64,000 bases of DNA, from the NCBI GenBank assembly GCA_001662655.1, contig KV460211.1; one strand, given 5' to 3'. The first letter of the stretch is position 1. Each line of letters starts with the position of its first letter. The notes under the pieces are model-generated. The model saw only the letters and a program-made list of their open reading frames with translations, searched no databases and had not been told where the DNA came from. Position numbers and translations under genes: made by a program. Source of the DNA: Pseudogymnoascus verrucosus (lineage: Eukaryota). This document shows positions 6,119-50,025 of this stretch, one piece after another.

Positions 6119-9100
6119 TTAATACGCCCTCCTCCGCTTCTTAGCCTTCCCCTTCCTCGGCGTCGTCTTCTCAACCTTCTTCCCCGCCCCCATCTCCTCA
6201 CCCATACCTTCCTCCAAATCCCTCATCTCCTCATCATCAATCTCGCTCAACTCCTCATCGCTCGTCGCGCGCGCCACATCCTCCTCCACCACCTCCTTCT
6301 CCACCGTCTCCTTCTCCACCACCTCCTTCTCCACCACTTCTTCCTCTACTACCTCCTCCTCCACCACTTCCTCCTCCACCACTTCCTCCTCCACCTCCTC
6401 TTCCATAGGCGGCGGCGGCGGCGGCTCCACAAACGTCCCCGTCTTCGGGTCGTAGTTCTCGAGATACCACGGTTTCCCGCCGCCGGTGAGGAAGGAGCCA
6501 GGAGGGGCCACACTCGCTACGCCGGAAGTGGGTGCGAGGTCTTGGCTTATTATGCTCCCTGCGCCGGGGTTGGAGACTGGGGGTGTGGGGGGTTGTGGGA
6601 GGTTGTTTGACGTGGCCGAGAACTCGGCGGCAGCTGGGGGTGTTTCGGAGGATTGCGCGGCGGCGGGCTCCTCGGTAGTAGGCTTCGCGGCTGCGGCAGG
6701 TGTGATGGATGCGTAGGCTTCACCGTCGTCTGGCTCGCCTGGCGCGTCTTCGTCTTCGTCGAGCATGTCTACATCTGCGGATTCGGCTAGTGCGATGCTA
6801 TCAGCTGCTTCGGCTTCGACTGTGATCTGCTGGTTCACATCGACGTTGTCATCCGCTATATCAGCGCCTTCAATTGACTGAACTGCAACCGTTGGATCAG
6901 CAGTGCCATGTCTTGTAGGACCCAGCAAAGCCTCTGGAGAGATGTCAATGCATCCCTCTAGAACGAGTTCAAGATCCGCGACCATCTTATCCGGCGACTT
7001 TTGGAGCAGGTCTGCCTCTGCGCGGACGGCGATTTCGAGTTGTGGCTGGATGGCCTTGATGATTCGCTTGGCGAGCTTCTTCCTGTCCTTGACTTCGTGG
7101 ATTGCTATCTTCAGCTGGGAATTGTATTCGGCGCTACCCACAGCGGCCTCGCTGGGAAGGTGGGCCGCAACGGCTTCGATGCCTTTCTTGCAGATCATTG
7201 CGATGTCCTCGGCAAGCGTCGTGGCTTGGACGTAATATCGACGATGGAGCCTATTTTGTACTTGCCAGAGGCCAGCAGTAAACGTTCTCTTAATATCGAG
7301 GCTGTATCTCATGTTAGTAATGCAAACAGCGGAAAGGGATGCTAAGATTCAACTTACGCAAGCGCTTTATCGACAATCGGCGGCAGCAGCTTCGTAACGG
7401 GGAAGTACGTGGTATCCAACGTCTCCCTCTGTTTAATAGCATACTGCACCTTCTCCGTCTCCCTCATGACCACATGTGTGCTCAACTCCTTCAACCTCTC
7501 CACATCCTTCACCAGCATCTTCGCAAACTCAATACGCCTCTCCAGCCTCGCGCGTCCCACATCGCCCATACTCGCAAAATTGCGCCTCGTAAGCTCCATC
7601 GACGAAAACGTCTCCATCTGCAACTGCAACCTCTTCAGCAGCGCTGCCCCGCGCCTCGCCTCGCGCTTCAGCGTCCAGTACCGACACGCCGCCGCGACCC
7701 ACTCGCGACGCCGCAGGATCGTGAAGCGCTGGAGTGAGACGTCGACGATGTCGTACACTGCGGACGGAATGACTGGTGCACCCGAAGGGAGTTTCCACAC
7801 CGACTTTGGGTTCTGGAGCTCCCCCTTCTTCTTGGCGCTGCCGATGGTAATGGCCAGGTGCGCGCCGGTCTTCTGGGACTCGTCGGCGGGATGCTCGGTG
7901 GTTGCGTTTTGGTGAGTAGCTGCGAGAGCGAGGGCGGAGGCTTGGCTATCAGCCCAGAGACGGTCGCGCATGGTGCGTTTGTAGAAGCTGCGCGCTTCGC
8001 GTGTGGCTTTCGCGACATCGTTTTCTTTAGCGTAGTCGGTGGGGCAGTGCTTGTCGCAGAAGGCTTTGAGTTGGGTAGTGCCGTCGAGCTCGGCGAGGGT
8101 GCCGTGGTTGTTCTTCATTTTGAGGAAGAGATGGGCTCGGCGGGCGCAGGTGACGTGGAAGGCTTGGTAACAGAGTTTGTTACCGCATTGGATGCAGGCG
8201 CCCATTCGTTGCTGGCAGATATAGCATGTGAGTTTCCAACGTGTTTTGGGAACCTTTTCCACATCCATTACTGGTTCCATGAATGTATGATTGCCGAGTG
8301 AGACTTCTGGAATCCACATGGCACAGAGTAAGTGAGCCCAGCGCGACGAGTTGGTCTGCTTGAAACCACCCTCGGTGTTCGGGCAGAAGATGCAAGTCTA
8401 GATATATGTCAGCATATGCATAGCAATCAATCAACAGTGAAATAACATACCGGGACACCTCTCCCAATAAGCTGGCACTTTCTGCACAGCCACTGACCCT
8501 CCGGAATAAAGGGAACACCGTAACACTCCTGATGAACGGCCAAATCGCAGCCATCACAAAAGACAATCGCATTCGTATTCTCGCAATCCCCATCGTCGCA
8601 AATGGCACACTTGCTATCCAGCTCCTCACCTGCCTGTGGCTCTCCATTCACAGCAGCAGCTGAGCTGGATCGCGGCCTGTGAGTCTGCGGCGGCTTCGGG
8701 TTTGGCTTGGGAATCCGCTTTTCGAGCGCATGCCACTCCTTCTCGATCTTTGTAATAGTGATCTCAAACATCTCGCGGGAGATGGGCTCAATCCCAGCAG
8801 CTTTGCGTTGTGTGAGATTGAATGCCTCAAGCCACTTGTCGTCCTGCTCGTCCATATCATATTCCACCCTCCCCACAGAGCCACCCGTAATCGCCACCTC
8901 GCCGCCCTTGACAGGCAAATCCAAGTCTTCATCGAGGTAGGCATCATTATGTTTGATCATAATATGCTCTGAGCGAATAAATATATCCGTCTCCTGATAC
9001 CCCACATTCGCCATACTCTTCTCAACGTACTTCACCTGCCCTGACGCCTTGTCCTCAAACTTCGCCAGCGCATCGACCTTCCTATAGGATGGCTGCGGCA

Positions 9101-9965
9101 ACGTGAGTCTTTCTTTCGGGTTCTGGTTCTGCAAAGGCGCAATCATAGTCCCCATAGGTGAAGATGCAAACCCCACCGACTGTGCCGCAGCCCTGGCTGC
9201 ATAGAACGCCACAGGGTCTCGCGGCGGGCGTCCAGGCCTCCTCTTCGTCGGCGGCGACCCCTGCGTCATCAGTGCCCCATTCATCATCGCCCCCGGCGTA
9301 ATAGCTCCCATTGAAGTCGGCGTATGTGAACCCTCACCCTCCCTCTCCAGCTCCCCGTCCATCTCCTCAGGAACCCCATCAACCTCCTTGGCACTGTAGG
9401 TCCTCAGCCTAATGTCGATATCTAAATCCGGGTGAAACTCCTCCCATGACCGTTCTTCACGAGGCTTATACCCATCATTCTGGACCACCGCCGCCGCTGC
9501 TTGGGCACTGCTGTTGAACCTCATCTTTGGTTGTTGATTCCTTGGTAGCACCGTGCGCGTCCTATCGCTTCGTGCACTTCGCACACCTCTCTCGCCAGAC
9601 CGAGGATTCCTCCCCCCACCACTCCTATCACTCCTATCTCGCCTAGCGCTAGAGCTCGGATAAACAACCGGCAGAACCCCCTTTCGCGCATTCTCCTGCC
9701 CCACCCGTCCACGGGGCCCAACATAATTATACCCCCCAGGGCCCGTCCCTCCCACAGGCTCCTCATTCCCGTCCTCGTCCACGTATCGACCACCCCCTCC
9801 TGGACCGCCAGGCACATACCGCCGCTTCTTGTGGGGAGGCTCAGATTTCATGACCAGCGGGATGGGAGAGCCGCGTTTGTGAGGGCTGCTGGTGATGCTG
9901 TCGCCGCCGCTGCGCGGTCGGGTGGCTTTGCGCGAGCGGCGCGGGGTGTGTGGCATAGGCGCCAT
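6119..9965 (-). CDS. NTO1: NuA3 HAT complex PHD-finger subunit Nto1/BRPF-like (EPL1 + PHD-zf-PHD; 3 exons)
   Basis: EYDMDEQDDKWL (EPL1), CAICDDGDCENTNAIVFCDGCDLAVHQECYG (PHD) and GACIQC...AFHVTCA (ePHD). Introns near 8398-8450 and 7260-7357. Start placed at MAPMPH. Confidence 0.9.
6284..6400 (-). repeat. Coding 15-bp tandem repeat (EEEVV/EKEVV)n in the Nto1 C-terminus
   Basis: Translation EEEVEEEVVEEEVVEEEVVEEEVVEKEVVEKETVEKEVVEED. Confidence 0.85.
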
Positions 9966-10786
9966 GGTCGTGTTTGTGTGTGTGTGTTCGATGCGTTCAA
10001 TCTGTTCTGTTCGGTAGGGTGCAGATGCAGTTGCTGCCGCTGGGGCGCGTTCGTTTGGTTTGCGATTGTTGGAGGAGAGATGGATGGCGTCGCTGTTGTT
10101 TGAGGCTATGCGCAAGGAGCGGGTGCGCGCAGGGTGACCATGCCACACTCACTGCTTCAAGCGTCGCAGGTTCTGATCGCAGAAAAGAGAGTGTGAAAGA
10201 AGAAGTGTTTACGAGAGGGCAAGCTGTTGGGTTGCGCTTCGCATGAGGCCGAGTTGGGCTGTCGTCGTTGGTCTCGGATCTGGTGTACGCGACAGATCCA
10301 TCCTAGTCTCGACGGGGTGGACCGTGCGCGATCGTGCCAAGAGGGGTGATGGGGCTAACGCTTTTGGGATGATGGGCTTTTTTAAGGTTCGGGATGGATT
10401 TCTAGGGTGTGTTTGGGGGGTTTGAAGGGTTATTTTTGGTAATTGGAAGGAAGGACGGAATGTGATGGTCGGTATGGAAGGATGGAGTATATCTTTGTGC
10501 AGATGAGGGCCGTGTTGATATATCTATGGGCTGTTATTTTGAATTATGAAGTCGGTGTGATTTGGAAGTCCATCTACGATTGTGATTCTCAGTATGAGTG
10601 ACTTCCGTCTGACAAGAGATTTTGCGCCATATATAAGTTCCTACAACGAAGGCACATAATCCCCTATCGCGATAAGGTTGGCTACGTTTCGGAATAACCT
10701 CACCTTCTCACACGCGTGTCGACCGTCACTGACAAATTTTATCGTGAGCTTTATAGCCAGTGGCCAACTTCAATGCCTACTTCCTG

Positions 10787-11413
10787 CTACAGTCCATATA
10801 CTTCCAAGTCTTCATTCATCCCCGGAAAAGCCCACACTTCACTCTCAGCTCCACCAAAGCACCTCAGGTTCCTAACCCCACGGTCTTCAAATCCCAGCTT
10901 CTCAACCACGCGCCTCGACCTTGCATTCCCCTTCGCAAAGAAGCCAAACACAGCATCAACACCCAAGTCTTGCCGGGCATATTCAATCAGCGCCCCCGTG
11001 GCCTCCGTCGCATACCCCTTCCCATTCAGCTCAGGAATAATCGCGAATCCAACATCCGGCGCCTTATACGCATCATCGCCCAGCCCTCGCGTCAGCGACA
11101 CCGTGCCAATCGGCGTGCACCCCTTCAGCACCTCGGAAAACGAGGCGTTGCTGGATGTAGCGGGTGAGTCGGGCTGCAGGTTCACGAGGTATGTGCCATA
11201 TCCGTACTTGCTGTGCTCAGCTTGGAAACGGGTTTCTATGTATTTTCGTGCCCCCGCAGTGGTGGTGATGGAGGTCGGAGTGCCGCCGATAGAGGCGATG
11301 AACTCGGGTGTGTTGTAGAGATTCACGATGAAGTCGCAGTGGGCGTCGTTGGTTGCGATGAGGTGGGAGAGATATAGGCGTGGGGTTGTGATGTGGAAGT
11401 TTGGGTCTGTCAT
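10787..11413 (-). CDS. GNAT acetyltransferase (RimJ/RimL, Acetyltransf_3 family)
   Basis: ITTPRLYL N-terminus, PDVGFAI..ELNGKGYATEA acetyl-CoA loop, and N.RSRRVVEKLGF motif. Intronless, 208 aa. Confidence 0.88.
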   Translation of the reverse strand: MTDPNFHITTPRLYLSHLIATNDAHCDFIVNLYNTPEFIASIGGTPTSITTTAGARKYIETRFQAEHSKYGYGTYLVNLQPDSPATSSNASFSEVLKGCTPIGTVSLTRGLGDDAYKAPDVGFAIIPELNGKGYATEATGALIEYARQDLGVDAVFGFFAKGNARSRRVVEKLGFEDRGVRNLRCFGGAESEVWAFPGMNEDLEVYGL

Positions 11414-11890
11414 TTTGAGTGTGGGGTTGGCAGTGTGGGGTTGGTTTGGGTGCTGAAAATAGATGAGGTAGACAGACGGTATCGGCGATGGTTATGTTGA
11501 TATAACAGTGAGAAGTGGGCTATACAAATGTCTTAAAGGCTGATTCAATAACTGATCTGTAATTTGACTCATAGTTACAGCGGCTCATCTTTTAGTGACA
11601 AGTCGTTATCTCCGACTTCCTGGGTTAACCAGGGTGCGAAGGATCCAGACAATCCCGCCAGTAGTTTAAGCCTAGAATAGAAGCTGCTTATGAGACTTTA
11701 TGCACCTACAATTATAAGTAGAATCCACATTGCGATCGTTTGTAACTACAACTAAATTTAACATAGTGTATCTATTAAATGATTAAGGGGGTAGATAAAC
11801 AACATTAAATATCATTTAATGGTCAAAAACTAAATCTACAGTTCGTGACAATGATTAATTTATTCTACAGAACCACATACAAAAACCCAT

Positions 11891-12921
11891 TCAATGCCCA
11901 TGCTCACCCCCAATCCCCTCATCCCCAATGTCACTCCCGTGTGCAAGCACATGCGTAACAACTCCACCAGTATACCCCGACCCCCTCACTTTATACAAGC
12001 GACGTTCATACGCCCAGCTGAAAATGTGATCAAAATCGCGGCATTGGTGAACAGCTCCCATACCGTTAATACCGACTTTTGTCAGGGGCTCGAGTGTCAC
12101 ATCGCCCGCGCACATTATTGCCTGACGGATATAGTCTAAGCAGTGATCGCGGTGGAGGACGAATTCGTCGGGGGTCATTGTTGTGACGCCCCCAGGATAG
12201 TAGGCAAGTCGAAGAAAGTTCTGGAGATCATCAGCAAACTGTGTAGCTGGAGATGTAGAGAGTGAAGGCTACCAGGCAATGGAGTTGGTGGAACATAGAG
12301 ACTCCGTATACTTTTGCTGTGTCAGGGTTGTTGGGCGCAGGGAGTGAGGCAGGCAGGCTGCCGGTGTACTCTGTTGGAACTTCGATGATCCCTTTGCCGG
12401 CTGGTGTTGGCAAAAATTAGCATTGGTGTTGAACTTGCATCTCGTACGTTCAAAATGGAAGGACTCATCTACTTACGTGGGGATATTCTCTCCCACATCT
12501 CATCCGTAGCATTGGAAGGTGGTCCGCCATAAAACTTGTGAAGCTGGAATGTAACTCGATTCGAATAGAGCACTGATGCGTTAGTCCATGAAGATAGAAA
12601 CTGTGAATATCTTATATACTCACAGTCTGGCACAAAATGATCAGTTCCAGGCGTAGTATAACACCGAAAGCCTCCCAGCAAAATTATTACATTGGCCCAG
12701 ACTGAAAGACCAGCAATAAGAAACAGCAAGGTAATTATTAGAGACCAGTTTTGCCATTGTGTAAAACATCGTCGAGCGGAGCGGCGAGATCCTTTAAACT
12801 GGCCGCGACTATCAGCGTTAAAAGGTAGCCCTTCATCTCCCGCCATTAGAGATGTGCTTGAATCAGCGTGGTCTGAAGGATATCCAGAGACATGTTTATC
12901 ACTGGCGATAAATTTAGACAT
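11891..12921 (-). CDS. DUF3328 / UstYa-like oxidase (fungal RiPP tailoring enzyme), intact, 4 exons
   Basis: Exons 12921-12624, 12572-12477, 12400-12273 and 12220-11891 splice in frame through GT-AG introns. The protein has a single N-terminal TM helix, GPPS..TD..W, VSMFHQLHCL and HRDHCLDYIRQAIMCAGDVTLEP (two HxxHC motifs), and HQCRDF. Confidence 0.93.
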
Positions 12922-13502
12922 TGTTGTATGTTGATGGAGTGAGAATTAGAACTTGAAGATTTGACGAAGTTGAATAATTACACACGCCAACACACCACTG
13001 AAATCGGCTGTAACATTAAGTCTATGTGCAACGAGCCATATTTGGAGATCTACCCCGCTCTAAAAAGGAGAGTCAGCTTACAAGTTCACATTGGCTGTTC
13101 ACATTGACTTGTGTTCTACGTTCTTCATGTATAGTATCTGCACGATCTTCTCGATGAATGTTCATAAACGGCCCAAGGAAGCGACTAGTTCTGGGTGATG
13201 CCATAGATTTTATAACTAAGCTCATTTACCCCTCGTTTTCACATGTGCGATTAAATCGTTCTTCGATGTCCTGGGGAAAATATTATACCTTGACTTTCGA
13301 CTATATCTCATTTCATCATGATGTTGGTGCAGAAATGTAGCAACACTACCCCTTTCCTCAATGCCTTCAGCAGCCCCTAGCTCAACACTAGTATTTTTCT
13401 ATTTCCTTTTATTTCGTCTACATATTTCCGATAGCAATCCGAGGTGATAAGAACTTTGACCAATTTCCCTTCACTATTAACAAACGGCGAGGAAATATCA
13501 GA

Positions 13503-14038
13503 CTTTGGTCTACGGATCCTGAAACCGAGGATTTCGATACTGAGGCTTTCTGAGGCTCCTCTGAGTCTGCTGTCCTCCCTTACGACACAGTCATCTCCCG
13601 CATCGAGGCCCGACCCGCCGACCTCCAACGCTACCAGCCCGTCAGTCACCTTGAAGATATTTAAGTAACCAAATACGACATTAGCAACCACTTTCGGTCC
13701 TACTTTGACTGGTTTTCGGGTATGGCAAACCGGCGAATCTCGACGATCTTCGCCTGCCTTGAATGTGCTGACTGTGTCGGAGGTGCTACGCAGTTTCTTG
13801 AGCCTGTTGGTAGGTTCTCTGCCAAATGGTGTAAGTTCATCGACTGCAAAGATGACCCTGGACCTGGGGACGTTGCATTCCACGCCCTGGTGGAAAATGC
13901 GGTGTTCTGATCAGCTGGTCAAACTTGTTTCGAAATCGCACCAGACGCCCTTCAGGAATGTCGGTCAAGAAGGGAAGGAAGATTGCCTTGAATTTTTTTA
14001 CTGGGCACAACGTTGCATATCCCATTGAGGAAAAGTGA
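13503..14038 (+). pseudogene. Prolyl 4-hydroxylase-like 2OG-Fe(II) dioxygenase pseudogene
   Basis: Manual translation: F*GSSESAVLPYDTVISRIEARPADLQRYQPVSHLEDI*VTKYDISNHFRSYFDWF...NRRISTIFACLECADCVGGATQF...KWCKFIDC...VAFHALVENAVF*. After a frameshift near 13955 it continues GMSVKKGRKIALNFFT. Stops at 13551, 13662 and 13908. The HxD motif reads YxD. 5' exons not resolved. Confidence 0.75.
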
Positions 14039-14866
14039 CCGAAAGTAACCGAAGAATATATTTTGAATGCAGGATCATAAAATACAACCTCCTGAGAGCT
14101 GAAATATCTTGTCATGCAATTTCTGTTCTGTATGATGGCGGCTCAGAGCTAATAGGAAGGGTTTCACTACTGGGCAGGCGAGCTAGGTAATTATCGACCA
14201 CCTATTTCATGGGTTGCTCCGAGGTAAAACTGATGCAGAAAATGTCAAAGAATAAGACACATGCAAACCTTATGCCGAGTAAATAGACTGCAATGGTGCC
14301 TCATCTTTAAAATATAGCCTGATTAAGGATCCCGAGAAAGATGTAGCCATACATCCAACTTATAGCTCTTGATACATCTTATCCTTAATGGGAGTGGAGT
14401 GACGCCGTTGGAAGACGAGATAGGAAAGTATGTCAGATCGTGTAAGTCACAGTGTAGCTTGGGAAATGCCCGAGACAACAAATAGTGATCACGATGAAAA
14501 CTATAACCGCCTAGAACTCAGGTTCTTTTGCTCCGTTTATTAGCTACCTATCATAGCGATAGCCTCATTCCAAATCCATAACAACTGTGATGATGACTGC
14601 AGAATCACAAAATAGGAAGCTCAATACCTCGTAGCACAACCAAGGGTAATACGACCGACGATGCACCTCACATACCCGACTCTATTCGTATTACACGATC
14701 CGACGTTAAAGCCAAGCTCCTCTTTCTGTTTTTCAGAAAACGCTTTCTTCTCACGTCCAAACATTAGTTCTCAAAGTCTACGGTATGCTACTTTTCCTGA
14801 CGCTATTCTAATCACGCAAGATCGATTATTCAATAAACTAACATCACTAGATCTACACTATTCACC

Positions 14867-15205
14867 ATGAAATTCTCATCTTATTTCACTGCTGGAGTTC
14901 TTTTGTTCCCAGCTCTCATTTCTGCTGCACCCACCATTGATGGCGGAATACAGAATCGTGAGAAAGCAGCCGCGCCTGCGACGCCCGCCGTCTGGTCGGC
15001 GTCTGGCAAGAAGCGCAGTCCTGTTGAGGAGGCGGCGCCTGCCCCCTCAGCAGTCTGGTCGGCAGAGAAGCGAAATGTTGTTGAGGAGGCAGCTGAACCC
15101 CCGACGGCCTACGTCTGGACTGCCCCTAACAAAGAGAAGCGGAACGCTGCTGAAGAAGCAGACGTACCCGTCCCGGCGGCTGGTTGGACTGGCTCTAACA
15201 AGTAG
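14867..15205 (+). CDS. Secreted Kex2-processed repeat protein (KEP), putative dikaritin-type RiPP precursor
   Basis: Signal peptide MKFSSYFTAGVLLFPALISA, then four units: EKAAAPATPAVWSASGKKR / SPVEEAAPAPSAVWSAEKR / NVVEEAAEPPTAYVWTAPNKEKR / NAAEEADVPVPAAGWTGSNK. Lies about 2 kb from the DUF3328 gene. Confidence 0.85.
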   Translation: MKFSSYFTAGVLLFPALISAAPTIDGGIQNREKAAAPATPAVWSASGKKRSPVEEAAPAPSAVWSAEKRNVVEEAAEPPTAYVWTAPNKEKRNAAEEADVPVPAAGWTGSNK

Positions 15206-15579
15206 AAGCGTGACGACTAATGATGTCCCTGTCTACGTTGGGGCCTCAATGGGAGAGTAGAAATGCAAGAGTTAAGTTGTGAGCAGTTATATAGCTACCA
15301 TTCAAGCTTTTAGCAAAACATGAATAGTTTCACTGGCACTACCATTTATCCACCCATTTATAAAGTTCTCACACATAATATTCAAGCTGGCGCTTCTATT
15401 GCTGCCCTTTTTTGACATTGTAGCTCAATCATTATGCTGCGCAGTATTTCCAAATGTTTGATTCGCCTCTGTCCAATCTGGTTGAAATTCAAACTTGCTT
15501 CTATCGTAACTTAAATAGTGCGGCTAAAACGCACAAGTCAGACATACCAGAGGCAGGCTGAATGCCACATCGTACTTTT

Positions 15580-18031
15580 TCACAATGCATGGTGTGCTTG
15601 CAAAGAAAGCTTGGATTGTAGATCCGCATCATCAGAGCTCGAGCCAACCCAGAAAGTGTAAGTGTCTGCATCGACGTGCTTCTTTCCATTGACGTAGTAG
15701 CCCAGTTCTTCTACGGGAATCGTGAAGGAGACTTGCTGAGAGGCGCCTGGCTCAAGATTGATCTTCGTGAACCGAATGAGATTCTTGATAGGTCGTTCAA
15801 TTACCAGAAATGCCTGTCCAAAATAAACCTGTACGACTTCTTGTCCGGCAACGCTTCCAGTGTTTTTGACTGTGGTGCTGACGACGATATTGCCTGAGGT
15901 GCTTGTGTAATTCGACACCTGAACGTTTGAGTAGCTGAAGGTTGTGTAACTCAGTCCAAAGCCAAAGGGGTATCGTGCTGTGCTGTTGAGTACTGGCCAT
16001 TGCCAGTCAGTGGGCGTACATATTCCAGCCTTGCGATTTGTTGGCAAATAGTTGTAGTATATAGGCGTGGCCCCAGAATACTTTGGTATAGAGACAGTCA
16101 GCTTGCCACTTGGATTTGTCGCCCCAGTAATCAACGATGCCACTGCTTCGCCTCCTAAGTCGCCTTGCAAGAATGTGTGGATAATGACATTGGAGTTCGC
16201 AACAGCGTATTCCATTTCAACGGCCTGCCCTCCACTAATGATGACAATAATAGGCACACCAGTCGCTGCAATAGCTTTGTGCAGTTGAAGCTGAGGTCCA
16301 GGGAAACCAAGATCAGCATGGTCATAGAACTCCCCATCAGTACGAACGTCGCCAATATTATCGAGATTAGAAGATGATGATCTAAGGACTAGGACCACCA
16401 ACTCCGCAGCCTCGGCAGTTTTCACGGCATCTGCTATCATTGCATCGACATTCGTATCATTGTTGACAAAGCAGCCCCTTGAAAACGTAACTTCTTTTGC
16501 AATACCCTCAATTCCACGTAAAACAGCGCTGCCTATGAGATAGTCATCGGCTGCATATGACCCGGCGTTGATATATGTCGCAAGGGGGCCAATGACCGCA
16601 ACTTTGGACAAGAGGTTTCCAGTGGTTTTGATGGGCAGGATGCCATCATTTTTCAGGAGAACCATCGACTCTTTGGATATATTGAGGTTGAGTGGTAGAT
16701 GAGCTGGGGATCGTACTTTGCCGTTGATTTGCGCCAAGTCCGGAAGAGGGTTCTCAAACAGCCCGGTTTTGAACTTCAGAGTCAACATACGACGGGCAGC
16801 AGTCTTAACGAGGCTGGCAACTCTAGGATCATTTCCAAGCGTTGCTAGTGTTCCGAAGCTTGATGTCCCGCCAATCTCGTGGCCGATGCTCGCCTCCAAT
16901 GCCTGTATGCCGGCTGTTTGGATATCCTTGGCGGTTTTATGGAGATCATGGAGGAAAGACATTGCTGAGTCGTCTGAGGTGGCAACTCCATCCCATCCTA
17001 GCTCATCTCTCAAGAAAAGATTGGTGTATGCGACGTTTGATGTCATTGGGACGCCATCGTAAGATGAGTAGGATGGCATTAGAGCAGCTGGATTCGCCTC
17101 TTTAATAACAGCTTGGAAAGGTACTGAGTATATATTATAGAAGTCGTTGATACCACCAACCATAGGAGCGAGGTTGATACCTGCTGTGCTGCTTCCATAG
17201 ATAAAGTGTTTTATAGTGGTTGCAACACGGAGAGTTCCATTGGCATCTGGGGCTTGCATGTTTTTAACGTGCGCCACTCCAAACCGTGAAACCAAGTAAG
17301 GATCCTGAAAAATAGTGGTAGATTAGTTTATGTATACAAACAGACATGTATTGATCTCGATACTTACCTCGCCATACATCTCTCCCACACGCCCGAACTT
17401 TGGTTCCCGTGCTAGATCAAGCTCAGGACTATAGACCCATCGCACACCAAGCACGCGGTTTTCAAGTGAAATCGCATTGACGACCTCGGAGAATAGTGGA
17501 ATATTCCATGAAGAGGACATGCTTAGAGACGCCAGAAATAATGTAGTGTTCCAAAGTGTTGGTCCATTGACCGAATCTCCAACAGTGATCACTGGAATGT
17601 GAAATCGATTGAGTTTGGTTGTATTGGCAATGACGGCACTCATAACCTTTGCAGATAGATAGCAGTTTGTAGAATAAGTCCCGAATGCTAATCCCAACGT
17701 GTTAGTAATCATGAGGTCTTATCATGCGAGAAATAGTCTTACAAGCTGATGACCCCCCATAAGGTGCATTCAAAGTCTCCAAAAAAGTGTAGTTATATGA
17801 CGCCTCGTAGCCCAAGACTCCACCATAGCTTCTGGTCTGAGCGAGTTGTTCCAGATAGTTCATTCGAGACAGGAGATCTTTGACTCTTGCAGATACGGGC
17901 AGTTTCGGGTTGAGATATAGAGCATTTGATGTCACTTTGTCTACAGCTGACGCTGCTGCAGGCTCAGCATTGGCACCGAAAGAGCTTACTGACAACCACA
18001 AGAGAAGAAGCATCTTCAATGCAGAAAGCAT
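15580..18031 (-). CDS. Secreted GH3 beta-glucosidase/beta-xylosidase with Fn3-like C-terminal domain (3 exons)
   Basis: Signal peptide; SPELDLAREPKFGRVGEMYGEDP; ATTIKHF; nucleophile region ATSDD; NPSGKL; YPFGFGLSYTTF; GQEVVQVY. Introns 17742-17688 and ~17368-17305 keep the frame. Confidence 0.92.
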
Positions 18032-35548: not shown

Positions 35549-36418
35549 CTGGACGGGTGTTAGGGTAGAGGTGGGTTTTATGGGTGGTCTTACTGCATGT
35601 TGAGGGAACACAGGTGGTGAGGTTAGGCTTGGGTTTAAGGTTGAGATGTATGGGATTAATTCTGAAAACGAGGAACACTCATCTATGTATATTGCTACGT
35701 ATGTTTGCCATTCATCTATAAAAAAAATCTGCCCAGCCTAAGTGGTAGCAAGGAAGAGAGCAGACAGGTGTGTCGAGTAATCGCATTACATCGACCCAAG
35801 AAGCCGGACAGGAAAAGTCTCAAAAAGCATGTTATTAAGCTGCTTGTAAATTGATTAACAATCAAGTAGAAATCTCGGGCGTTTTTCGCCCGTTTCGCAA
35901 AGCTGCTTCTTTCCTCACTATATCACCCTCAAGCCTGACAAGGAGGGGGTAGCAAGCGGGAGGCATGTCTTGGCGGGTTTTGTAGACAATTTGGGAGAAA
36001 ACCTACGGCAAAGTGGCGAATGGCGCTGTCCGTCTTCAGAGTTCCGAGAATCACTTTGCAAAAATATAGACTCACAAGCTGGGATGTCGATAATGCTGAT
36101 ATAATTGTTCAATGCGCTCAAAGCTTGTCTAATATGCCTAGTCTATGTCTATAGAATGCCTACCCATTAACCAAGGTTTCTCATGGCCCAGAAAGCGAAA
36201 GCAGAATTGAAGCAGGAGAAATGAGGAGAAGAGGGCATGAAAGATAGTGCTAGTTCATTCAACAGATCTCTATCTCCATGAAGGCAACTTCGGGCAATAA
36301 AATTGTGCGCGCTGTTATAATGGCTTGGGTTTGCGAGACGGGAACACCAGTTGCACGCAGATAGCTCTACTGTTATTTTTAAAAACGATCTTGAAAGATT
36401 TGAAGTCTAAATCTAAGT

Positions 36419-37273
36419 CTAATACACAGTCTTAGGAACACCCGGGGTGGTCCAGCAGACTCTATCCATGATACCCGCCTCCTCAAAGACCTTAACCAGA
36501 TCCTCGCCATGCTCAGTAAAATGTCCCCATTCCTCAAAATGCATAGGGACCATGACATCCGCGCCAATGTCCCGAACCAACTGCACTGCCTGCTTACCAT
36601 CCATGGTGATCTGAATCGGGCCAATGGGGAATTCAACCATAGCATTACCCAGGTTGAGAATGGCGGCCATAACGTGCACGCGATCCTTGATCTTCTTCAA
36701 TTCATCGATGTACACTGTATCTCCAGAGAAGTAGATGGCGTTCGGCTTGCCGCTTGCCTCGTGTATACCGAAAGAATCCGTCTCGAGTATGAATCCGGTG
36801 ACCTCTCCAAATGGGAAGTGTTTGCAAGGAGTGCCGGTGATGCGGAATTCTTTGCCACCAATGATAGAGGTCACCGTCTCCCAGGGCTTTAGGCCTACAA
36901 CAGCTGGTCGCGGCTGGAGGTTCTTTGCCCCGTCCATGGTCGTGAATACACGGCGTCCATCGAGGAGCCTTCGGCCTTCGGGATCGAGGTTGTCATAGTG
37001 GTCTTCGTGACTGAGAAGGACAGCGTCGATCGGAGGCAGATCATGGAGCTTCATGGCTGGGGCCTTGGAAATCGAGAGCTGGACGGGTGGAGGAGCCTCG
37101 TCTAGTCCAAAGTCTTCCTTCAGTCGTACTTTGGACCAATCAATCTCTTGTTCGAAAGTACCGGCATCTCCAAAGTAGGGATCGGTGAGGAAGTTGATGC
37201 CGTCGATTTTCAAGATAGCCGTGGCCGTTGTGACGTGGGTGAAGATGAGACTGGTTTTCGGTGACGAAGGCAT
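36419..37273 (-). CDS. Metallo-beta-lactamase-fold Zn-dependent hydrolase
   Basis: HVTTAT...FLTDP, SHEDHYDNLD (HxxHxD-type metal motif), PCKH, YFSGDT, PMHFEEWGHF. Confidence 0.9.
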   Translation of the reverse strand: MPSSPKTSLIFTHVTTATAILKIDGINFLTDPYFGDAGTFEQEIDWSKVRLKEDFGLDEAPPPVQLSISKAPAMKLHDLPPIDAVLLSHEDHYDNLDPEGRRLLDGRRVFTTMDGAKNLQPRPAVVGLKPWETVTSIIGGKEFRITGTPCKHFPFGEVTGFILETDSFGIHEASGKPNAIYFSGDTVYIDELKKIKDRVHVMAAILNLGNAMVEFPIGPIQITMDGKQAVQLVRDIGADVMVPMHFEEWGHFTEHGEDLVKVFEEAGIMDRVCWTTPGVPKTVY

Positions 37274-38030
37274 GATTGCAAACGAGGGAAGAAGAAGTGA
37301 AGACTAGATGGACTTATTTTGACGCACAAACACCACCGGGGCCGTTCTCATATTTAAGGACGGACAGAACCCTTCCCTCCCGTTTGGATCTGCTTACACA
37401 AGACCTAGAGAGTGCTTCGTTAGTCACTGTAGCTTAGTTAGTCAAGATTATCTAAGAGCCTGGGTTATGAAGAATCTCTAAGAATCCATAACTACAGCTA
37501 CTCGGATCTTTAAGATTCTGTGGTCGACAATACGTCGTACACTACTCGGGAAGCTCAAGTTCAACGTAGAATACAGAACCAAAGGCCGTCAGCAGACCCG
37601 CTGTAGTCTATCATTATAAAGCCAAAAAAGCCTATGATTAAAAACCATAGGAACAAGATACGCAGTACGTTCGACCCTGAAAAGCAACTGCTTCCTAACA
37701 TTCTCGAGGGTTTTGGCGGATTAAGATACCCGATTGAGTTAACGCCACCATAATCGAGAGATTTCGTCTTAGAATTAGCGGGGTAAGTTCATCGACAGTC
37801 TTGGCGGGTAATGCAACCACAAAAGGTTTAGTCTTAGAATTGGCGTTTCCCCACCAGTAACTACTTTGTAATTCATTCATACCTCCCACTTGGAGGCGAT
37901 TCCCTATATATACGTTCGACCATCTTCCTGTTGAGGGAGCATTCTTGATTTTACAACAAGCCTACCAACTGTTCTTCAATTTATACACCAGCTTCTCTTT
38001 TCCACACGTACTACAGAGACAACCACAACT

Positions 38031-38633
38031 ATGGCCGCCTCAGTAAAGTCGTTCCGCGAGCTTATCGGAGTCGCCCCTTCGACAGTATCAGTCAACGACT
38101 CCACACTTATCATTATCGACGCTCAAAATGAGTATGCCAACGGCCATCTAAAGACAGTCAACGTTGCCGAATCACGCAAAGCCATATCCACCGTTCTTGA
38201 GAAGTACCGCAAGTCCACACACGGCGGCAAGAACATCGTGCACGTTCTGCACGTCACACCACCCGGAGCACCCGTCTTCACAAGTGGCACCGAGCTATCC
38301 CAGGAGTTTGAGGAGCTCAGTCCCAAGGCGAACGAGAAGATCGTCGAGAAGAATTATCCAAGTTCTTTCGCAAAGACGGATCTTGCTGCTTACTTGGAAG
38401 GCTTGGGTGACGTTGGCAAGAAGATCGTCCTTGTGGGGTACATGGCCCATGTTTGTGTGAGCACGACAGCGCGGGCTGGTGCTGAGTTGGGATATGATGT
38501 CGTTGTTGTTAAAGACGCCATTGGTGATAGGGATATCCCTGGTGTTGCGGCTAGCCAGCTTGTTGATGTGGTTATTAAGGAGTTAGCTGATGCTTTTGCG
38601 ACATCCATTAGTAGCGATGAGATCCAGGCTTAA
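38031..38633 (+). CDS. Isochorismatase-family cysteine hydrolase
   Basis: [18 protein letters not shown], and [13 protein letters not shown] (D-K-C triad). Confidence 0.92.
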
Positions 38634-38966
38634 GCGTGGCGAGTTAATGCTATATTTATCGTCAATGAATATCAATGAATACATTTGTAGTCTTGTAAGA
38701 TGTTTACATGTCCAAGTATTCGCATGTTCCATTCCGAGGTACATTATCAACGCGCTAAATGAGACTAACGTCTAACAAAGCTAACTATTTTCGGTATCAT
38801 AAGCCGCCAAGCTTTTTGCTCGAAATTGCTGGCTGTGATTGGCTTTTAAGTCTCTTGGTCCCCACATCACGATAGAATCAAGTCCGATTAGTCAACATAC
38901 TCCGATTCAATCTTCTCAGGTGAGTTTGGGGGTTACATAGTTGCATTCAATGCCTGTAAACGCAGA

Positions 38967-40697
38967 ATGAAGGTCAAACAGAGATCTACCTGTCAGACAT
39001 GTAGAACACGCAAACTAGGGGTGAGATGGCTTCTTTTTTCTCGCTCGATGCGGTGATCAAGCAACTAATAGCGTAGTGCGATGGAAAGCGCCCAGGATGC
39101 AGCCAGTGCATTCTGACCGGACGGGAATGCGACGGTTATGCATCTGAGTGGACGTTTGTGCCACAGAACACTCGTTTCGAAAAGGCTTCCAGCCGGGAGT
39201 TGCAGAGAGTCGCGGCGACATCGACTCCAAATGATTATGAAAGGAGATTGCCTGCCACTCATCCTCCTGAAGCTCATCAATCTACTATTGATGCCGTCCA
39301 GCATGGAGATTTACTATCCCCGAGCCACGTCCCGCTTCCTGCGTTAGCTCTTGATCAGTCAAACTGGGACAATCTGATCGGATTGGTCATAACGAGCTAT
39401 ATTCCGGAGAATGAATTGCCTTTCATCTGTGACAATTCCGACAATAGTCGATATCGCATATGTGGCTCTTGGATGGAAGTCCTACCTGAGCTAACCGCCC
39501 AAACACATCAGGACTGTATCTTGCGGCCGGCCATGAAGGCTTTGGCTACTTCTATTCTAGCTTCGACTTCCCATGAGAATCCTTCCCACCTCGACCCAAC
39601 TCAACACTATTACGCGGCAATTCGCGCTCTACGGATTGGAATCGTTGCAAGGGACTCCGCTTCTCATGCCGAGTTCGCTGCCTCTATTATGTGTCTCAGT
39701 CTAACAGAGGTATTTCCGTTAATCACATACAGTAACTTATCTCCCGTACGCCTGCTCACAAACTATAGGTCATGTTTCGGGATTCTGCGGCTGGCCTGAG
39801 TACCCATATCAAAGGCGTATCACAACTACTCCAGACCCGAGGCCCGGAACAATATAAAACTGGCGTCCTCCACAAACTGTTCGTGGGATTTAGACCTTTG
39901 CTGGTGCGTCTTCATGGCCCCTTTTTTACGGGTTGTTGGGCTGAGCTGACTCTCTAAACTACTAGATAACTGAAGCTTTTCGAAGTCGCCAACCGACCAT
40001 TCTTGCTTCAGAGGAATGGATCCAATTACCATTTTCGATCTACAGCCCTTCCCTCATGCATACTCTCCTCAATAAAGTGGCCATCGTTCCGACTTATCTG
40101 CACCAGATCGATCAAATGTCGGAAAATCCAAGTCAAACTGATCCTTCTACGATAACTACTTTGTTTAGCTCTCTCGCCGACATACTCGTTGGCCTTGAAA
40201 ATTGGGAAATATCTCTACCGCGCCAAACTGGTGGACCTTGCTACTGGCCGCATGTCACGGCTTCACAACCGAAGGAGAGACCTCCACAACCCCAAGCCAC
40301 CGCTCTCTGGTTCCCCAACGTTACCATGGCGAATGTCTTCACCCACATGTGGACCTTTAGGATCATCTGTATGACCGAGCTCGAGAAATTGGCATTATTG
40401 TTTCCCTGGTTGATTCTCGGAGAAATGTCATTGACAAACCAGTGCCACCTCCACCATATCCAGGACCACACCTTAGCACTTTCGGACCAGATCTGTTCAA
40501 GCATGGAGTATCTATTGCAGGATGAGATGAAGCTTTTTGGGCCTGCATCTACGTTTGTCCCTCTGAAAACCGTGTATCACAAGTTTAAGATGGATGGGTC
40601 ACGGCAGATGAATATTGTCGCTCGCTGCGAGGCGATTGTAAAGCGGTTGGTTGATAAGGGGTTGTTGTCAGCTCCGATCATTGTGTTCGGAGGGTAG
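38967..40697 (+). CDS. Zn(II)2Cys6 transcription factor (multi-exon)
   Basis: MKVKQRSTCQTCRTRKLG|intron|CDGKRPGCSQCILTGRECDGY, followed by a fungal TF helical region (HIKGVSQLLQTRGPE; DQICSSMEYLL). Confidence 0.88.
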
Positions 40698-40809
40698 GGG
40701 TTATGCGGATGGCGTAGACAAACAATTTTTGAAAATTCGCCTATAAATATATACACCCAGCATCTCAGCACAACGTTGGAGTATGAGTAAGTCTCTCTCT
40801 CTATCCTGG

Positions 40810-42289
40810 TTATACTACACAGTTCCTTTGTTCAGCATCATCCACGCTTTTCTGCCAGTTGAGATTCATAAGTGCAACGCCCTCTATTCCCGTAACCAGG
40901 ATCAACGCCACCGTAACACCAGTCGAGAGGCCATCCAGATCCCAATGCAGATGAAACGCGGTCCATAGAGAGAGCGGTATCGCAACAGTATAGTAGCACC
41001 CTAGATTCACCCAGCCGCCAATGGCTTGTCTACCAACCCCCCGGAGAGCGCCATTACAGTACGCCGCTAGGCCATCGAAGAGCTGCATCACGGCGACGAG
41101 TGGCAGCGTATGGGCGACAAGCGCAATGACTTCTCGATCCTTCGTGAAGATGTGAGGCAGGTGATCACGCAGCGAGAAGAAAATAGTTGCGTTTATTGTT
41201 GCTACGACGAATGTGCCAATGAACGCTACCAATCCTGACATTTTCGCGGCCTGGACATGTCCACCACCGATACACTGTGCCACTCTGGTGGAGGCTGCAA
41301 TGCTGATGGAGAAGGGGATCTGCCACAGAGTACCGTTTAGTGTGGCAAGAATCGTCTGTGCTGCTAGATGGGCGGGAGACAAATACGCTGCGGCGAGGAC
41401 TAGGATCTCGAACGCGAGGTACTCCGCTTCAACCATGAGGAGCCCTGGTAGGGCGAGGCGTAACATAGAACCCCAGTTTTGTAGGACCGCGGATGTGGTG
41501 CCGCTCCAGCACTCGCGACCTCGGGAAAGCATGACATAGGCTGTGAGAGAGAGTGGAAGCAGGGTTTGGGTTGTAGCAACAGCAATTGGTGCTCCTATAA
41601 ATCCCCAGTCGAAGACCTTTTTATCATCGGATTAGCTGGCAGTTCCTCCCAGGCAGAAACGGTCGATTACTTACCCAGACGAATAGCCAACTTGCGAGTA
41701 CATTCACAGAAGCCCCAATGAAGAGGATGCATGTTATGGGAAAGAAGATTCCTTGAGCTGTTAAAAGCCTCTTCCCCGCCTCGAAGGCTCCAAATCCGGG
41801 GATACCACATATTAGAACTCGAAGATATAAGCCAGCAAGTGCAGCTGTCTGTGGGTCTGGCAGAAGTATGGTTAAGAGGCGAGGCGCGTTATACCAAAGC
41901 ACCGCGATAGGAATACCAATGCACCACAGAAGTAGGACCATCCTCTGGACATGTAATCCTACGAGCTTCGTGTTTCCGGACCCCCAAGCTTGGGCGCACA
42001 GTGTATCGAGACTTGTGGCGAGACCTTGGAAAACGACAAAGCCGGTAATATTTGCGGTCATACTCGCAACGCTCACGGCGCCCAGCTCGATCTTGCCACG
42101 ACCGCCAACGACGATAATACTGGTCAGATTGAGAGAGAACTGCAATAGGTTGGCGACGACGAGCGAGCCGGAGTACCTTGACAAAATTTTAAATTCATCT
42201 TTCCAGACCGATTTCTCGATGGCTTGGGGATTCACCAAAAGAGGCGTTGTTTCCGAGGTTCCTTCCGGGACTTCCTGGTAGTTTGTCAT
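40810..42289 (-). CDS. MATE family efflux transporter (multi-exon)
   Basis: GLATSLDTLCAQAWG, LRLALPGLLMVEAEYLAFE, IAASTRV, QLFDG...GALRGVGRQ. Confidence 0.92.
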
Positions 42290-42826
42290 GCTTCTTGAAA
42301 TGTGATTGTGAGCTTGAGCCAACCGCCGTGGCTGCTATCTGTTGTGCTTCTAAAACCATATCTTACCTTCTTCGACAAAATATTCGTTTGAGTCACAATT
42401 TTTTTCTCTGCTCGGTGAGGATTCCCCCGAGCACAGTCACCGAATAAACCGATAACAGAATATTAAGAGGTGGTAAACTGTAAATTCTCTAGAAGACGTT
42501 AGTTTGAAACAGGTTCACGATTCTGGTATGTCATTAGCGCTTATATCAAGACGTTAGTCTGGAATAGGTCAAGATTTCAGTCTGCTCGCTCCACTTACTT
42601 CCACCCCTTCCTGAAAGACGTTGACAGGGATTAAATGTTATCGATAACCCGCGACTTAGAATGCGTTCGAAGATAATCGCATCCCACCATCTTATCCGCA
42701 TTCGAACATGTGCCATTATAGAAGATAGACATAAAAACCAAGGCTGGTCCTAGAATATGAGGATACTACTCCCTCTGGATCAATTAATTCTATTAGAATC
42801 TCTCAAAGTAAAATAAATCTATTACT

Positions 42827-44542
42827 ATGGCGGAGAAGAGCATAGCTGCTACAGTGCCGGGGAGTGGGCGCCTCCAGGATGAGGAACAAGGCTCGGTTCA
42901 TGTATGCGAATACGTCAGCCCCGCACATGGTCTTGGTGAGCTGGAGGTTATGGCCATGCGTGAACGAATTCCAATCCTGCGGAAGCTCAGAGCTATCGAG
43001 GCATGGCTCGATAAAAAGTTCGGCATCGAGACAACAGGCGCGGACCGTATTCCCGAAAATGAACGTCAACCTCCGAGCATCTTTAATGTATGTTTATCAC
43101 TTGAGAGACCTGAAAATACACTAACGGCTAAGATGATGTTCTTCTGGTTCTCCATGCTGATATCGCCTGGTACTATAACAATGGGCTTGTTGGGTCCCAT
43201 TTATAGTCTCTCTGTGAATGAATCAATCATTATCACTATATTCGGATCGGCTATAGGCTCCATCATACCCGCTTTCACTGCATCATTATGCGCTCCGACT
43301 GGCCTTCGTCAAATCGCTACGTCTCGATACGCCTTTGGAATTTGGGGCTCTAAAATATGCGGTCTCCTCAATATTTTAGTCAACCTTGGCTTCGGTACAA
43401 TATCCTGCATTGTCGCAGGTGAACTCATCAGCGCCGTAAGCGGAGGCAAAGTCACAATCGTTGTTGGTATTGTAATTCTTAGCGTTACAGCTTATATCAT
43501 CTCATTTTTTGGTTTCCGCATCATTCACCGATACGAACAGGTGGCCTGGGTCGTAATACTGATCTTTATCTGCGTTGAGTATGGACAAGCAGCCAAATAC
43601 TACTCGCCCACACCAGGTCTCTCATACTCTTCTGGACAAGATAAGACCGGTGCTGCATTGAGCTACTTTGCTCTTATTTTTGGCACATCAGCTGGATGGT
43701 GTTCTATGTCGGGTGATTACTACGTTCACTATCCTGCGGATATTAGCAGATGGTTCGTTTTCTGGATGACTTGGATTGGTTTGACGGTTCCCTCGTGTTT
43801 CATGATCATTCTTGGTAACCTTTACGGAGGCATCTTGCTTACTAACAAGGCAATGGCGGACATCTATGACAATGGAGGTATAGGGGCGCTCATTCTGGCT
43901 ACTATGTCGCCTGATGGATGGAGCAAGTTTGTCTGCGTCATGTTTACAATGTCAATGGGTAAGTTATCAACCTTCAAGATGGCTATGCTAACTTTATTGC
44001 AGTGGCTAGTTTAACTGCCATTTACTACTCTTCATCCTTATCAATCCAACTATGGGGAAAGCACTTCATGGCAGTTCCACGTTTTATATGGAACAGTCTT
44101 CTCGCTGCCATCAGTCTGGCGTTAGCTTGGGGAGGGAGGGAAAATCTGATAGGTGTTATTAGCAATTTCCTGTCCTTACTTGGGTACTGGACAACCTGCT
44201 TTGGCGTTATTCTCGCCATCGAAACTTTTTGGTTTCGCCCTCGCAATGGTGGCTACGATCTCGAAGGTTGGCAGGACCAGGACCGGATGCCCTTGGGTAT
44301 CGCAGCATGCGTGAGTCTAGCTCTAGGTCTTGGTGTTAGTTTTCTGGGTATGAATCAGACTTGGGTAAGTGTTTAATCTCCTGGCCTTTCCTACGTTGAC
44401 CAGACAAAAACAGTTCGTCGGACCAGCAGCTAAGGCAATTGGACAATATGGGGGCGATCTTGGGAACTATTTCACATTAGTTGCTGTTTGTTTCTCCTAC
44501 CCTGTTCTCCGACACCATGAAATCAAGCTCACAGGACGATAA
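42827..44542 (+). CDS. NCS1 purine-cytosine permease (Fcy2/Tpn1-like), multi-exon
   Basis: GIETTGADRIPE, TGLRQ..SRYAFG, SGDYYVHYP, VPRFIW, NFLSLLGYW, LGMNQTW and multiple TM helices. Confidence 0.9.
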
Positions 44543-44889
44543 ATGCCTATGACTCGGGTTTTATTGTTCGAGTGTGCAAGTAGGGTGCAGCTAGCCATGA
44601 TCCCGAAATATGTACTTGTGCTACATGGAACTATATATCCCAGGGTCCCAGGGACGGTAGTCACAAAGTGTGCTGGACAGGCCAAACAATAAATGTCTCT
44701 TCGCCCTAGCTAAACTTGTCCAGAGCAACAGCATACTGAAGCTCAAGATAACAGCAAGGATAGAATTTAGTCGCCTTTTGGTGACAAAAGTATAGGCACA
44801 TTTCGGACAGTGTCGACACTAAACTACATTTCTAACTTTCATACCAGTCCCCTAGCGTCATGTATACAAACCTCCATCCCTATACCCCA

Positions 44890-46614: not shown

Positions 46615-47061
46615 TATTTTACGTTATCCAGAGGCAGGACAAACTTACGATTGGCGTAGTCGGAACATTTTCAATGACTACATCGACATTTTTTCAAATC
46701 CAAACTGTCTTGCGATGGTCTATCGGCGGCAATGTAACACGTTGCGGATTAGGACACACGGTCCGCTTCCCGGATAAAGTCAAAATAAATGACTGAAGTG
46801 GTAGTACCATACTCTCAGCTTCTATACGCTAAGGCTGGTGTCTAACGCGCTTAGCAGTGTCTGCTATGCTAGATTTATTATAATAAAAGCTGTTAATAAC
46901 ATCTCTCTAGATAATCAAATGGCCAGCTTAGTAAGTAAGTCGGAATAGAATCTCCGCGCATTATTTCACAGAAAATCTCACAGCAAGTAATACTCATCAA
47001 CAACATGTGAAAGAACCGATAATGCTATTTTAACACCATTGATTTTCCACAATATGTTAAC

Positions 47062-49948: not shown

Positions 49949-50025
49949 GCATCAAATAAAGTTTCGGTCATATCTTTCTTCTAGTAGTTTAAATAACGGC
50001 TTTTGGACGTGAATTACTAGTGACG

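Follow-up and report, generated by a model that had tools for sequence, protein, structure and literature searches.

Positions 10787-15205 of a 64,000-nucleotide stretch of Pseudogymnoascus verrucosus contig KV460211.1 (hereafter the window, meaning that stretch at its full length) hold a GNAT acetyltransferase gene, a UstYa/DUF3328 oxidase gene, the relic of a 2-oxoglutarate- and Fe(II)-dependent oxygenase gene resembling prolyl 4-hydroxylases (P4Hs), and a gene for a secreted precursor with repeated, Trp-centred cores. An earlier, sequence-only reading of this DNA had put these elements forward as a candidate cluster for a peptide made on the ribosome and modified after translation (RiPP), and we found all four where it had placed them. 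Judging from the comparisons below, they form a real cluster that recurs in other fungi. We consider it probable that the locus is a conserved and apparently undescribed version, built on a Val-Trp core, of the clusters that pair a Kex2-processed repeat protein (KEP) with a UstYa oxidase (the dikaritin type), and that the copy in this genome is a reduced one, possibly decaying. At the level of sequence the dikaritin-type assignment made by the earlier reading fits in its repeats, its motifs and its gene pairing: a KEP precursor lies next to a UstYa gene with both HxxHC motifs, and the pairing is conserved.

A scan of metagenome contigs, based on 28 aligned UstYa homologues, gave 29 loci, ten of which carry an orthologue of the oxidase in the window (type A of the three types defined below; 47-64% best-segment identity). 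These ten represent at most seven lineages, since L002 lies inside L001 and L005, L006 and L007 overlap at 99.9-100%. A P4H-like gene adjoins the type-A UstYa gene in four of the seven (L001/2, L005/6, L008 and L010), the remaining three being known from contigs of 1.1-1.7 kb that leave no room for neighbours. A secreted precursor with dibasic-delimited Val-Trp cores lies within 5 kb of type-A UstYa in three lineages (L001, L010 and L007), and the contigs of the four lineages without one measure 1.1-2.2 kb. The GNAT gene stands beside type-A UstYa in a single lineage (L001/L002, 69% identity) and is absent from L010 and from the L005-L007 composite, both of which have enough contig to show one. 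On L001 (13.2 kb) the order is a second UstYa gene, an intact two-exon P4H-like gene, type-A UstYa (63%), GNAT (69%), a third UstYa gene and a precursor of 260 residues, secreted, with 11 PAYVWAS repeats ending in KR. L010 (5.6 kb) carries an extra UstYa gene, type-A UstYa, a 95-residue precursor whose three cores read IAGVWGLKK, and the P4H-like gene; the L005-L007 composite has two extra UstYa genes, a 72-residue precursor whose only core is GCGVWGLKKEKR, type-A UstYa and the P4H-like gene; and on L008 (2.2 kb) type-A UstYa adjoins the P4H-like gene.

The pairing of precursor and DUF3328 gene proposed from the window thus recurs on independent metagenome contigs. The window, L001 and L010 differ in gene order, and neither of the genes that flank the locus in the window, a PHD/EPL1 gene on the left and a GH3 glucosidase gene on the right, is found in any of the 29 loci; both were rejected as cluster members on that ground. 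With order rearranged and flanks different, the association is therefore not the inherited synteny of a chromosome segment. What travels together is type-A UstYa, the P4H-like oxygenase and the Val-Trp precursor, with GNAT joining them only in the clade of the window and in L001.

These contigs also bear on a simpler account, in which the precursor would be an ordinary, unmodified secreted KEP, of a signalling or pheromone-like kind, that lies near a UstYa gene by coincidence. Such proteins are common: in a kingdom-wide survey DUF3328 genes lay near 22% of 7878 KEPs (1758 KEP genes with such a neighbour), leaving 78% without one (PMC7329392), and the ESM Atlas places the precursor of the window near alpha-factor-type and other secreted repeat proteins, with scores of 0.81-0.87 that fall under the usable level. 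However, the pairing recurs in three further lineages in a rearranged order and between different flanks, and Pseudogymnoascus already has a separate pheromone-type KEP, listed as type 2 in Table S2 of the survey (PMC7329392). We therefore regard coincidence as very improbable.

The cores of the related precursors carry a further signal. In L001 the sequence P-A-Y-V-W-A-S is identical in 11/11 repeats, and yet all six synonymously variable codons vary (four codons are used for Pro, two for Ala, two for Tyr, three for Val, two for the second Ala and three for Ser), and positions just outside the core change amino acid (A/V/M, A/S and A/T/S). In L010, I-A-G-V-W-G-L-K-K is identical in 3/3 repeats with synonymous changes at five codons. 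Core residues that stay fixed despite synonymous codon change point to selection on the peptide itself; the pattern is one of purifying selection on the core peptides and not of recent duplication.

The precursor gene of the window (14867-15205, + strand) is an open reading frame (ORF) of 112 codons with homologues in P0002 (120 residues), in P0003 of P. destructans (93 residues, three AYVW cores) and in P0042, a read-through ORF recovered by the precursor profile search, in which a P4H relic, frameshifted after HFDW, is joined to a precursor with 4 × YVWATPR. It starts 1946 bp from the start of the UstYa gene, in agreement with the spacing of about 2 kb given earlier, and it matched no Pfam family. 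Its N-terminus resembles a signal peptide as judged by hydropathy (hydrophobic residues 6-24, mean 1.59), and four repeats follow, ending in KKR, EKR, EKR and the stop codon. Their Trp-centred cores read PAVWSA, SAVWSA, AYVWTA and AAGWTG. Core 1 (A-V-W-S-A preceded by Pro; 14987-15001, +) shows a one-residue alignment gap where relatives have Tyr before Val. Core 2 (A-V-W-S-A; 15050-15064, +) has the same Tyr-less form in the relative P0002. Core 3 (Y-V-W-T-A; 15110-15124, +) alone has the canonical Tyr-Val-Trp form, and the three aligned homologues all carry it unchanged. Tyr and Val, present in relatives (AYVWTG or AYVWSG), have both been lost from core 4 (A-G-W-T-G; 15179-15193, +). At the DNA level the repeats form two families of three direct copies each, 28-32 nt long and spaced 57-69 nt apart; the identity of the copies to the reference copy, 68-82%, is too low for Tandem Repeats Finder, which called no array in the precursor.

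The end of the gene differs from that of its relatives. At 15200-15220 the TAG stop of the precursor is followed by an in-frame K-R-D-D and a second stop; P0002 reads SNKEKRDN at this place and the P. destructans protein ends in SNK. As P0002 has Glu where the window has a stop, the last core of the window has lost its terminal KR. Separately, the precursor profile also matched P0044 and P0045, WD40 proteins that we rejected as relatives, and P0043 (745 residues; 5e-8 in 7 stretches), whose KVWTAPT-like units and KRRR runs look like an odd-frame or GC-rich repeat and not like a precursor relative.

Across seven precursors we counted 26 cores, with Trp in all of them and a preceding Val in all but core 4 of the window. 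The observation, made on the window, that no aromatic residue but Trp is invariant thus holds for the whole family, and the GVWGL cores of L010 and L007 are without any Tyr. The count of Tyr in one of four cores was likewise correct, core 3 being the one. Scored as the residue two positions before Trp, Tyr is present in 11/11 cores of L001, 4/4 of P0042, 3/3 of P. destructans P0003 and 2/3 of the Trp-containing cores of P0002 (the fourth repeat there has no Trp), in 1/4 of the window, and in 0/3 of L010 and 0/1 of L007. Because the nearest relatives keep it, the Tyr-poor precursor of the window is a local departure within its own clade. The proposal of a chemistry other than that at Tyr therefore stands in part: the invariance of Trp across the family speaks for it, and the conservation of Tyr (YVW) in the nearest relatives against it. 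For Y-V-W cores a link from Tyr at position i to residue i+2, as in ustiloxin, is by analogy a possible and good candidate. That some lineages are Tyr-less argues for at least one enzyme able to act on Val-Trp where Tyr is absent, most simply the type-A UstYa, which is universally present. If type A acted at Val-Trp and not at Tyr in general, a Trp crosslink or a beta-functionalized Val or Trp would be new for DUF3328 enzymes and would mark a separate RiPP subclass; we hold this to be possible, though doubtful.

The oxidase gene itself is intact. Its model (11891-12921, - strand), recognized by PF11807 on the last exon and completed by splicing, has four exons (12921-12624, 12572-12477, 12400-12273 and 12220-11894, with the stop codon at 11893-11891) separated by GT..AG introns of 51, 76 and 52 nt, and encodes 283 residues. 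The C-terminal exon matches PF11807, the family named for it in the sequence-only reading, at 6e-16 (59.4 bits; cut-off 25). The product is 94.0% identical over 283/283 residues to P0004, an annotated 283-residue Pseudogymnoascus protein, carries both of the HxxHC motifs reported earlier (HQLHC and HRDHC), and retains 50 of the 51 columns that are ≥90% conserved among the 28 homologues. It has a single N-terminal membrane segment (residues 62-80, hydropathy 2.43). Work on CctR, the cyclochlorotine hydroxylase, describes DUF3328 proteins as membrane-associated, dioxygen-dependent binuclear-copper enzymes whose metal site is built from the two HxxHC motifs, and implicates the family in hydroxylation, halogenation and macrocyclization at C(sp3)-H bonds (PMC12435403). 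The best protein hits of the locus point to a Pseudogymnoascus-like Leotiomycete. Six type-A proteins were found in Pseudogymnoascus, four of them with both motifs; in P0006 the first motif is unreadable in the alignment, and P0030 is without the second.

Reciprocal best hits among C-terminal exons divide the UstYa proteins of these loci into three orthogroups, with 30-41% identity between types. Type A occurs in the window, L001, L005, L008 and L010 (55-75% between loci), type B in L001, L007 and L010 (47-67%) and type C in L001 and L007 (50%). The type-A C-terminus (11894-11960 in the window) has a feature of its own, namely a conserved GSGYTGG.VTHTPGHRNDF stretch, an acidic run and a terminal His-x-His that are found in many fungal classes and that could form an extra metal-binding tail.

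Between the oxidase and the precursor lies the P4H-like relic (13482-14035, +), which the earlier reading had correctly recognized as such; the gene is dead. Pfam searches of the ORF fragments of 13000-14700 gave no match for the pieces of the relic, and a PDB sequence search with its 81-residue piece (13665-13910, +) gave none either; the assignment comes from homologues and from tblastn. That piece had seven matching proteins at E ≤ 0.01 among 21 candidates, the best at 1e-29; five of the seven carry PF13640 and two are annotated as prolyl 4-hydroxylase alpha subunit. In tblastn the homologues aligned to the window with E down to 6e-56, over 13482-13907 in frame +3 and over 13901-14035 in frame +2. 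P0039, a full-length member of the family, matches the catalytic domains of the P4Hs of Chlamydomonas and Bacillus anthracis and of the human collagen enzyme at 1.5e-11 to 3.6e-11; its kinship with prolyl 4-hydroxylases is thus a true one. Among the orthologues on metagenome contigs, those of L001 (32.6 bits) and L005 (29.1) lie above the PF13640 cut-off of 27 bits and those of L010 (22.2) and L008 (23.2) under it; the N-terminal exon of the L001 gene encodes one hydrophobic segment.

The lesions of the relic comprise in-frame stops at about 13551 and at 13662-13664 and a frameshift near 13901-13910. Of the iron ligands, the first His is replaced by Tyr (RSYFDW vs RPHFDW) and a four-residue gap deletes the distal His. 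For the N-terminal exon known from the L001 gene there is no match anywhere in the window. With its reading frame broken by stops and a frameshift and its iron-binding His residues lost, the oxygenase as read here cannot act in this genome. Hydroxylation of Pro by the neighbouring gene, which had been suggested, accordingly falls away for this genome, where that gene is a pseudogene without metal ligands.

Contigs from four public DNA runs, aligned to window positions 10400-15600, place this loss in the wider clade. One run represents a near-identical genome over that interval, a single contig of run X5 is colinear with 10400-15192, and the depth-17 contigs of run X3 are colinear with one extra 69-nt precursor repeat (at 15126-15194). 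The locus is present in run X3 in two versions, one at depth 17 and the other at 23.1; the latter has 990 letters between the UstYa gene and the relic as against 695. The lesions of the oxygenase region in these relatives differ from those of the window: one base is inserted at 13809 in three runs, and in two the stretch 13923-13987 is replaced. The oxygenase therefore seems to be decaying throughout the clade of the window, with the other three genes persisting. Four relatives, whose numbers of repeats differ, retain the precursor ORF, its signal peptide and its dibasic sites.

The last element, adjacent as the sequence-only reading had it, is an intact, single-exon GNAT N-acetyltransferase gene (10787-11413, -; 208 residues). 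It matches PF13302 at 1.9e-21 (77.6 bits, cut-off 25.4) over profile positions 2-138 of 138 and PF00583 at 2.2e-8, and it is 69% identical over 210 residues to the GNAT beside the UstYa orthologue on L001. Its remote named relatives, YdaF, RimJ-type enzymes and the bleomycin N-acetyltransferase BlmB, are weak matches (BlmB at 5.6e-5, far under the cut-off of that family), and all are alpha-amine acetyltransferases. A possible function of the GNAT is acetylation of the peptide at its free N-terminus, whether for tailoring or for self-protection.

Several observations weigh against our reading of the locus as a conserved RiPP cluster, or narrow it. The oxygenase in the window is a pseudogene, and neither a gene nor a relic of UstYa B or C was found over the whole 64 kb. 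Of the four cores in the window, three have no Tyr and one of these no Val either, against 3/3, 4/4 and 11/11 Y-V-W cores in relatives. Relatives of the precursor are few, with three proteins at E ≤ 0.01 among 751 candidates; of the five proteins that the profile search returned at E ≤ 0.001, only P0042 is a real relative besides the window's own. Since the position of Pro is not fixed across lineages, the substrate of the oxygenase is a guess. Type A is unusually conserved for a tailoring enzyme, at 52-62% identity over its full length across Dothideomycetes, Sordariomycetes, Eurotiomycetes and Pezizomycetes (relatives in Botryosphaeriaceae, Sordariales, Xylariales, Aspergillus, Penicillium and Pyronema). 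Its orthologues include proteins of Lasiodiplodia, Macrophomina, Neofusicoccum, Aspergillus clavatus and Talaromyces. Finally, the GNAT has neither a signal peptide nor a membrane segment (highest 19-residue hydropathy 0.72) and so would not meet the peptide in the secretory pathway. Together with its presence in only one other lineage, this weakens the N-acetylation suggested earlier, which becomes one of two readings of the gene.

Some of these points would be explained if the cluster in the window were a non-producing remnant, in which the precursor drifts and type-A UstYa and GNAT are kept for another reason or have not yet decayed. The state of the oxygenase (two stops, a frameshift, both iron-binding His residues and the N-terminal exon lost), the presence of a canonical core in only one repeat of four with core 4 lacking Val too, the absence of UstYa B and C from 64 kb and the independent oxygenase lesions of relatives (the frameshift in P0042, the insertion at 13809 and the replacement at 13923-13987) all fit such an end state. 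The rest of the locus does not: type-A UstYa is full-length with 50 of 51 conserved columns, four of six Pseudogymnoascus type-A proteins have both HxxHC motifs, the GNAT is intact, and the precursor ORF, signal peptide and dibasic sites persist in four relatives. The Tyr-less cores themselves need not mean decay, for SAVWSA also occurs in P0002 and is hence older than this genome, and the two Tyr-less GVWGL lineages, with cores under purifying selection, indicate that Tyr is not required across the family. We consider a dead remnant unlikely, although it is the strongest of the alternatives.

Less probable still is the combination originally proposed for this very locus, namely a Trp-centred chemistry other than a Tyr ether together with Pro hydroxylation and N-acetylation. 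In its favour, the 26 cores, core 4 of the window excepted, have a single stretch in common, Val-Trp; the GVWGL cores dispense with Tyr; and the P4H-like gene, with GNAT in the closest lineage, is a conserved partner. However, the oxygenase is dead here, which excludes Pro hydroxylation by that gene, Tyr is conserved in the nearest relatives, and the GNAT is cytosolic by sequence and missing from L010 and from the L005-L007 composite.

Returning to the reading of the locus as a reduced member of a Val-Trp RiPP family, we infer a pathway in which the precursor would enter the endoplasmic reticulum by way of its signal peptide. There the type-A UstYa, predicted to be membrane-anchored, lumenal and copper-dependent, would oxidize a C-H bond at Val-Trp, with the cores still part of the repeat protein. 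In Y-V-W cores the most likely outcome would be a ustiloxin-like link between Tyr and the residue two places further along, and in Tyr-less cores a hydroxylation, a desaturation or an indole-based link. In the fuller relatives UstYa B and C and a putatively membrane-anchored P4H-like oxygenase would modify the cores further, the oxygenase probably acting on the conserved Pro of P-A-Y-V-W-A-S. After oxidation, Kex2 would cut behind the dibasic sites, exopeptidases would trim the ends and the product would be secreted; the GNAT, presumably cytosolic, would N-acetylate the freed peptide or protect the producer. With type-A UstYa, GNAT and a four-core precursor only, any product of the copy in the window would be a simplified one.

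To our knowledge, products are known for no more than a handful of KEP/UstYa clusters. With those of ustiloxin and phomopsin (precursors UstA and PhomA), the Val-Trp family shares a signal peptide, repeated cores delimited by Kex2 sites and one or more UstYa/DUF3328 genes beside the precursor, and most of its members share a triad led by Tyr-Val, Y-V-W as against Y-V-I (PMC7329392). The known cores, YVIG, YAIG and YVIP, are cyclized between Tyr and Ile at i and i+2, and both pathways need a tyrosinase, UstQ or PhomQ (PMC7329392). The Val-Trp family differs in having Trp where theirs has the ether-accepting Ile, some lineages being without Tyr, and in bringing a P4H-like oxygenase and GNAT. Neither the 69 large ORFs of the window, in a Pfam scan, nor the 46 ORFs scanned on related contigs include a tyrosinase, methyltransferase, P450 or peptidase. 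Cores of the form x-V-W instead of Y-x-I, with no tyrosinase in the ORFs scanned, set the locus outside the ustiloxin/phomopsin subgroup.

In gene content the reduced locus resembles that of asperipin-2a (AprA, AprY), which likewise combines a repeat precursor with one UstYa-type oxidase, from a single DUF3328 gene (PMC7329392), and has no tyrosinase. The asperipin core is rich in Tyr and the accessories there are a reductase and a transporter (PMC12048977), whereas the window has a Val-Trp core, with GNAT and a dead oxygenase as accessories. Compared by description, Clan R2 of Parmeliaceae lichens also resembles it, having a single UstY-type gene, GNAT neighbours and none of the usual dikaritin accessories, an architecture of UstY and GNAT that its authors call unprecedented for fungi; that account reports no repeat precursor found in the clan and, in the text available to us, mentions no oxygenase (PMC12048977). 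A chemical parallel comes from the bacterial MpoB cyptides, in which a Tyr-x-Trp triad (Y-P-W) of a ribosomal precursor is oxidatively cross-linked (PMC12288599). Organism, enzyme class (a cytochrome P450 vs a copper DUF3328 enzyme) and precursor type all differ, so that the likeness is one of analogy and not of kinship; by that analogy it shows that the i/i+2 spacing of Tyr and Trp is chemically suited to a cyclophane link (PMC12288599).

The description of the cluster as undescribed has held up so far. In the literature searched, which took in dikaritin papers since 2021 and had subscription-only papers outside it, we found no description of the Val-Trp core, of the combination of UstYa with a prolyl 4-hydroxylase, or otherwise of this motif or set of genes. 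The family may already have been counted, undescribed, in the KEP survey, which notes one type of W with P and whose Table S2 gives Pseudogymnoascus KEPs by accession and type only (PMC7329392). The Val-Trp motif strings do not occur in the supplement text of that survey or of PMC6339444.

The family offers an x-Val-Trp core demonstrably under selection, three UstYa types that vary by lineage, and lineages with and without Tyr and with and without a working oxygenase. This makes it a natural comparison set for the role of each DUF3328 copper enzyme and for whether Trp can be acted on. Were type A to act at Val-Trp and not at Tyr, the subclass would span several classes of Ascomycota and be the first to recruit a secretory oxygenase of the prolyl 4-hydroxylase type and a GNAT, and the Pseudogymnoascus copy, with one oxidase and one precursor, would be a natural minimal system for studying the Val-Trp reaction. 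A Val-Trp precursor may also be the precursor type missing from the UstY and GNAT architecture of the lichens (PMC12048977). For this genome itself the finding means less, the copy being reduced and its tailoring gene dead.

Two other sets of UstYa-family genes appeared among the 29 loci. L016 holds a 137-residue secreted repeat precursor with five EPAIQYVGSKR copies (7656-8069, -) beside two UstYa-family genes (9486-9956, +; 10717-11154, -), and represents a dikaritin-like cluster of the Tyr type that has no relation to the Val-Trp family. The overlapping loci L023, L024 and L025 pack four to five UstYa paralogues into about 6 kb (about 7590-13025), among which the screen for repeat precursors flagged none. 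Elsewhere in the window, a run of genes at 36400-51500 encodes a metallo-beta-lactamase-fold protein, an isochorismatase, a MatE transporter, a cytosine/purine permease, an adenosine deaminase, a Zn2Cys6 transcription factor and a 2OG-FeII_Oxy/DIOX_N oxygenase (47062-48237, -). This run is possibly a cluster for nucleobase catabolism or secondary metabolism, separate from the Val-Trp locus.

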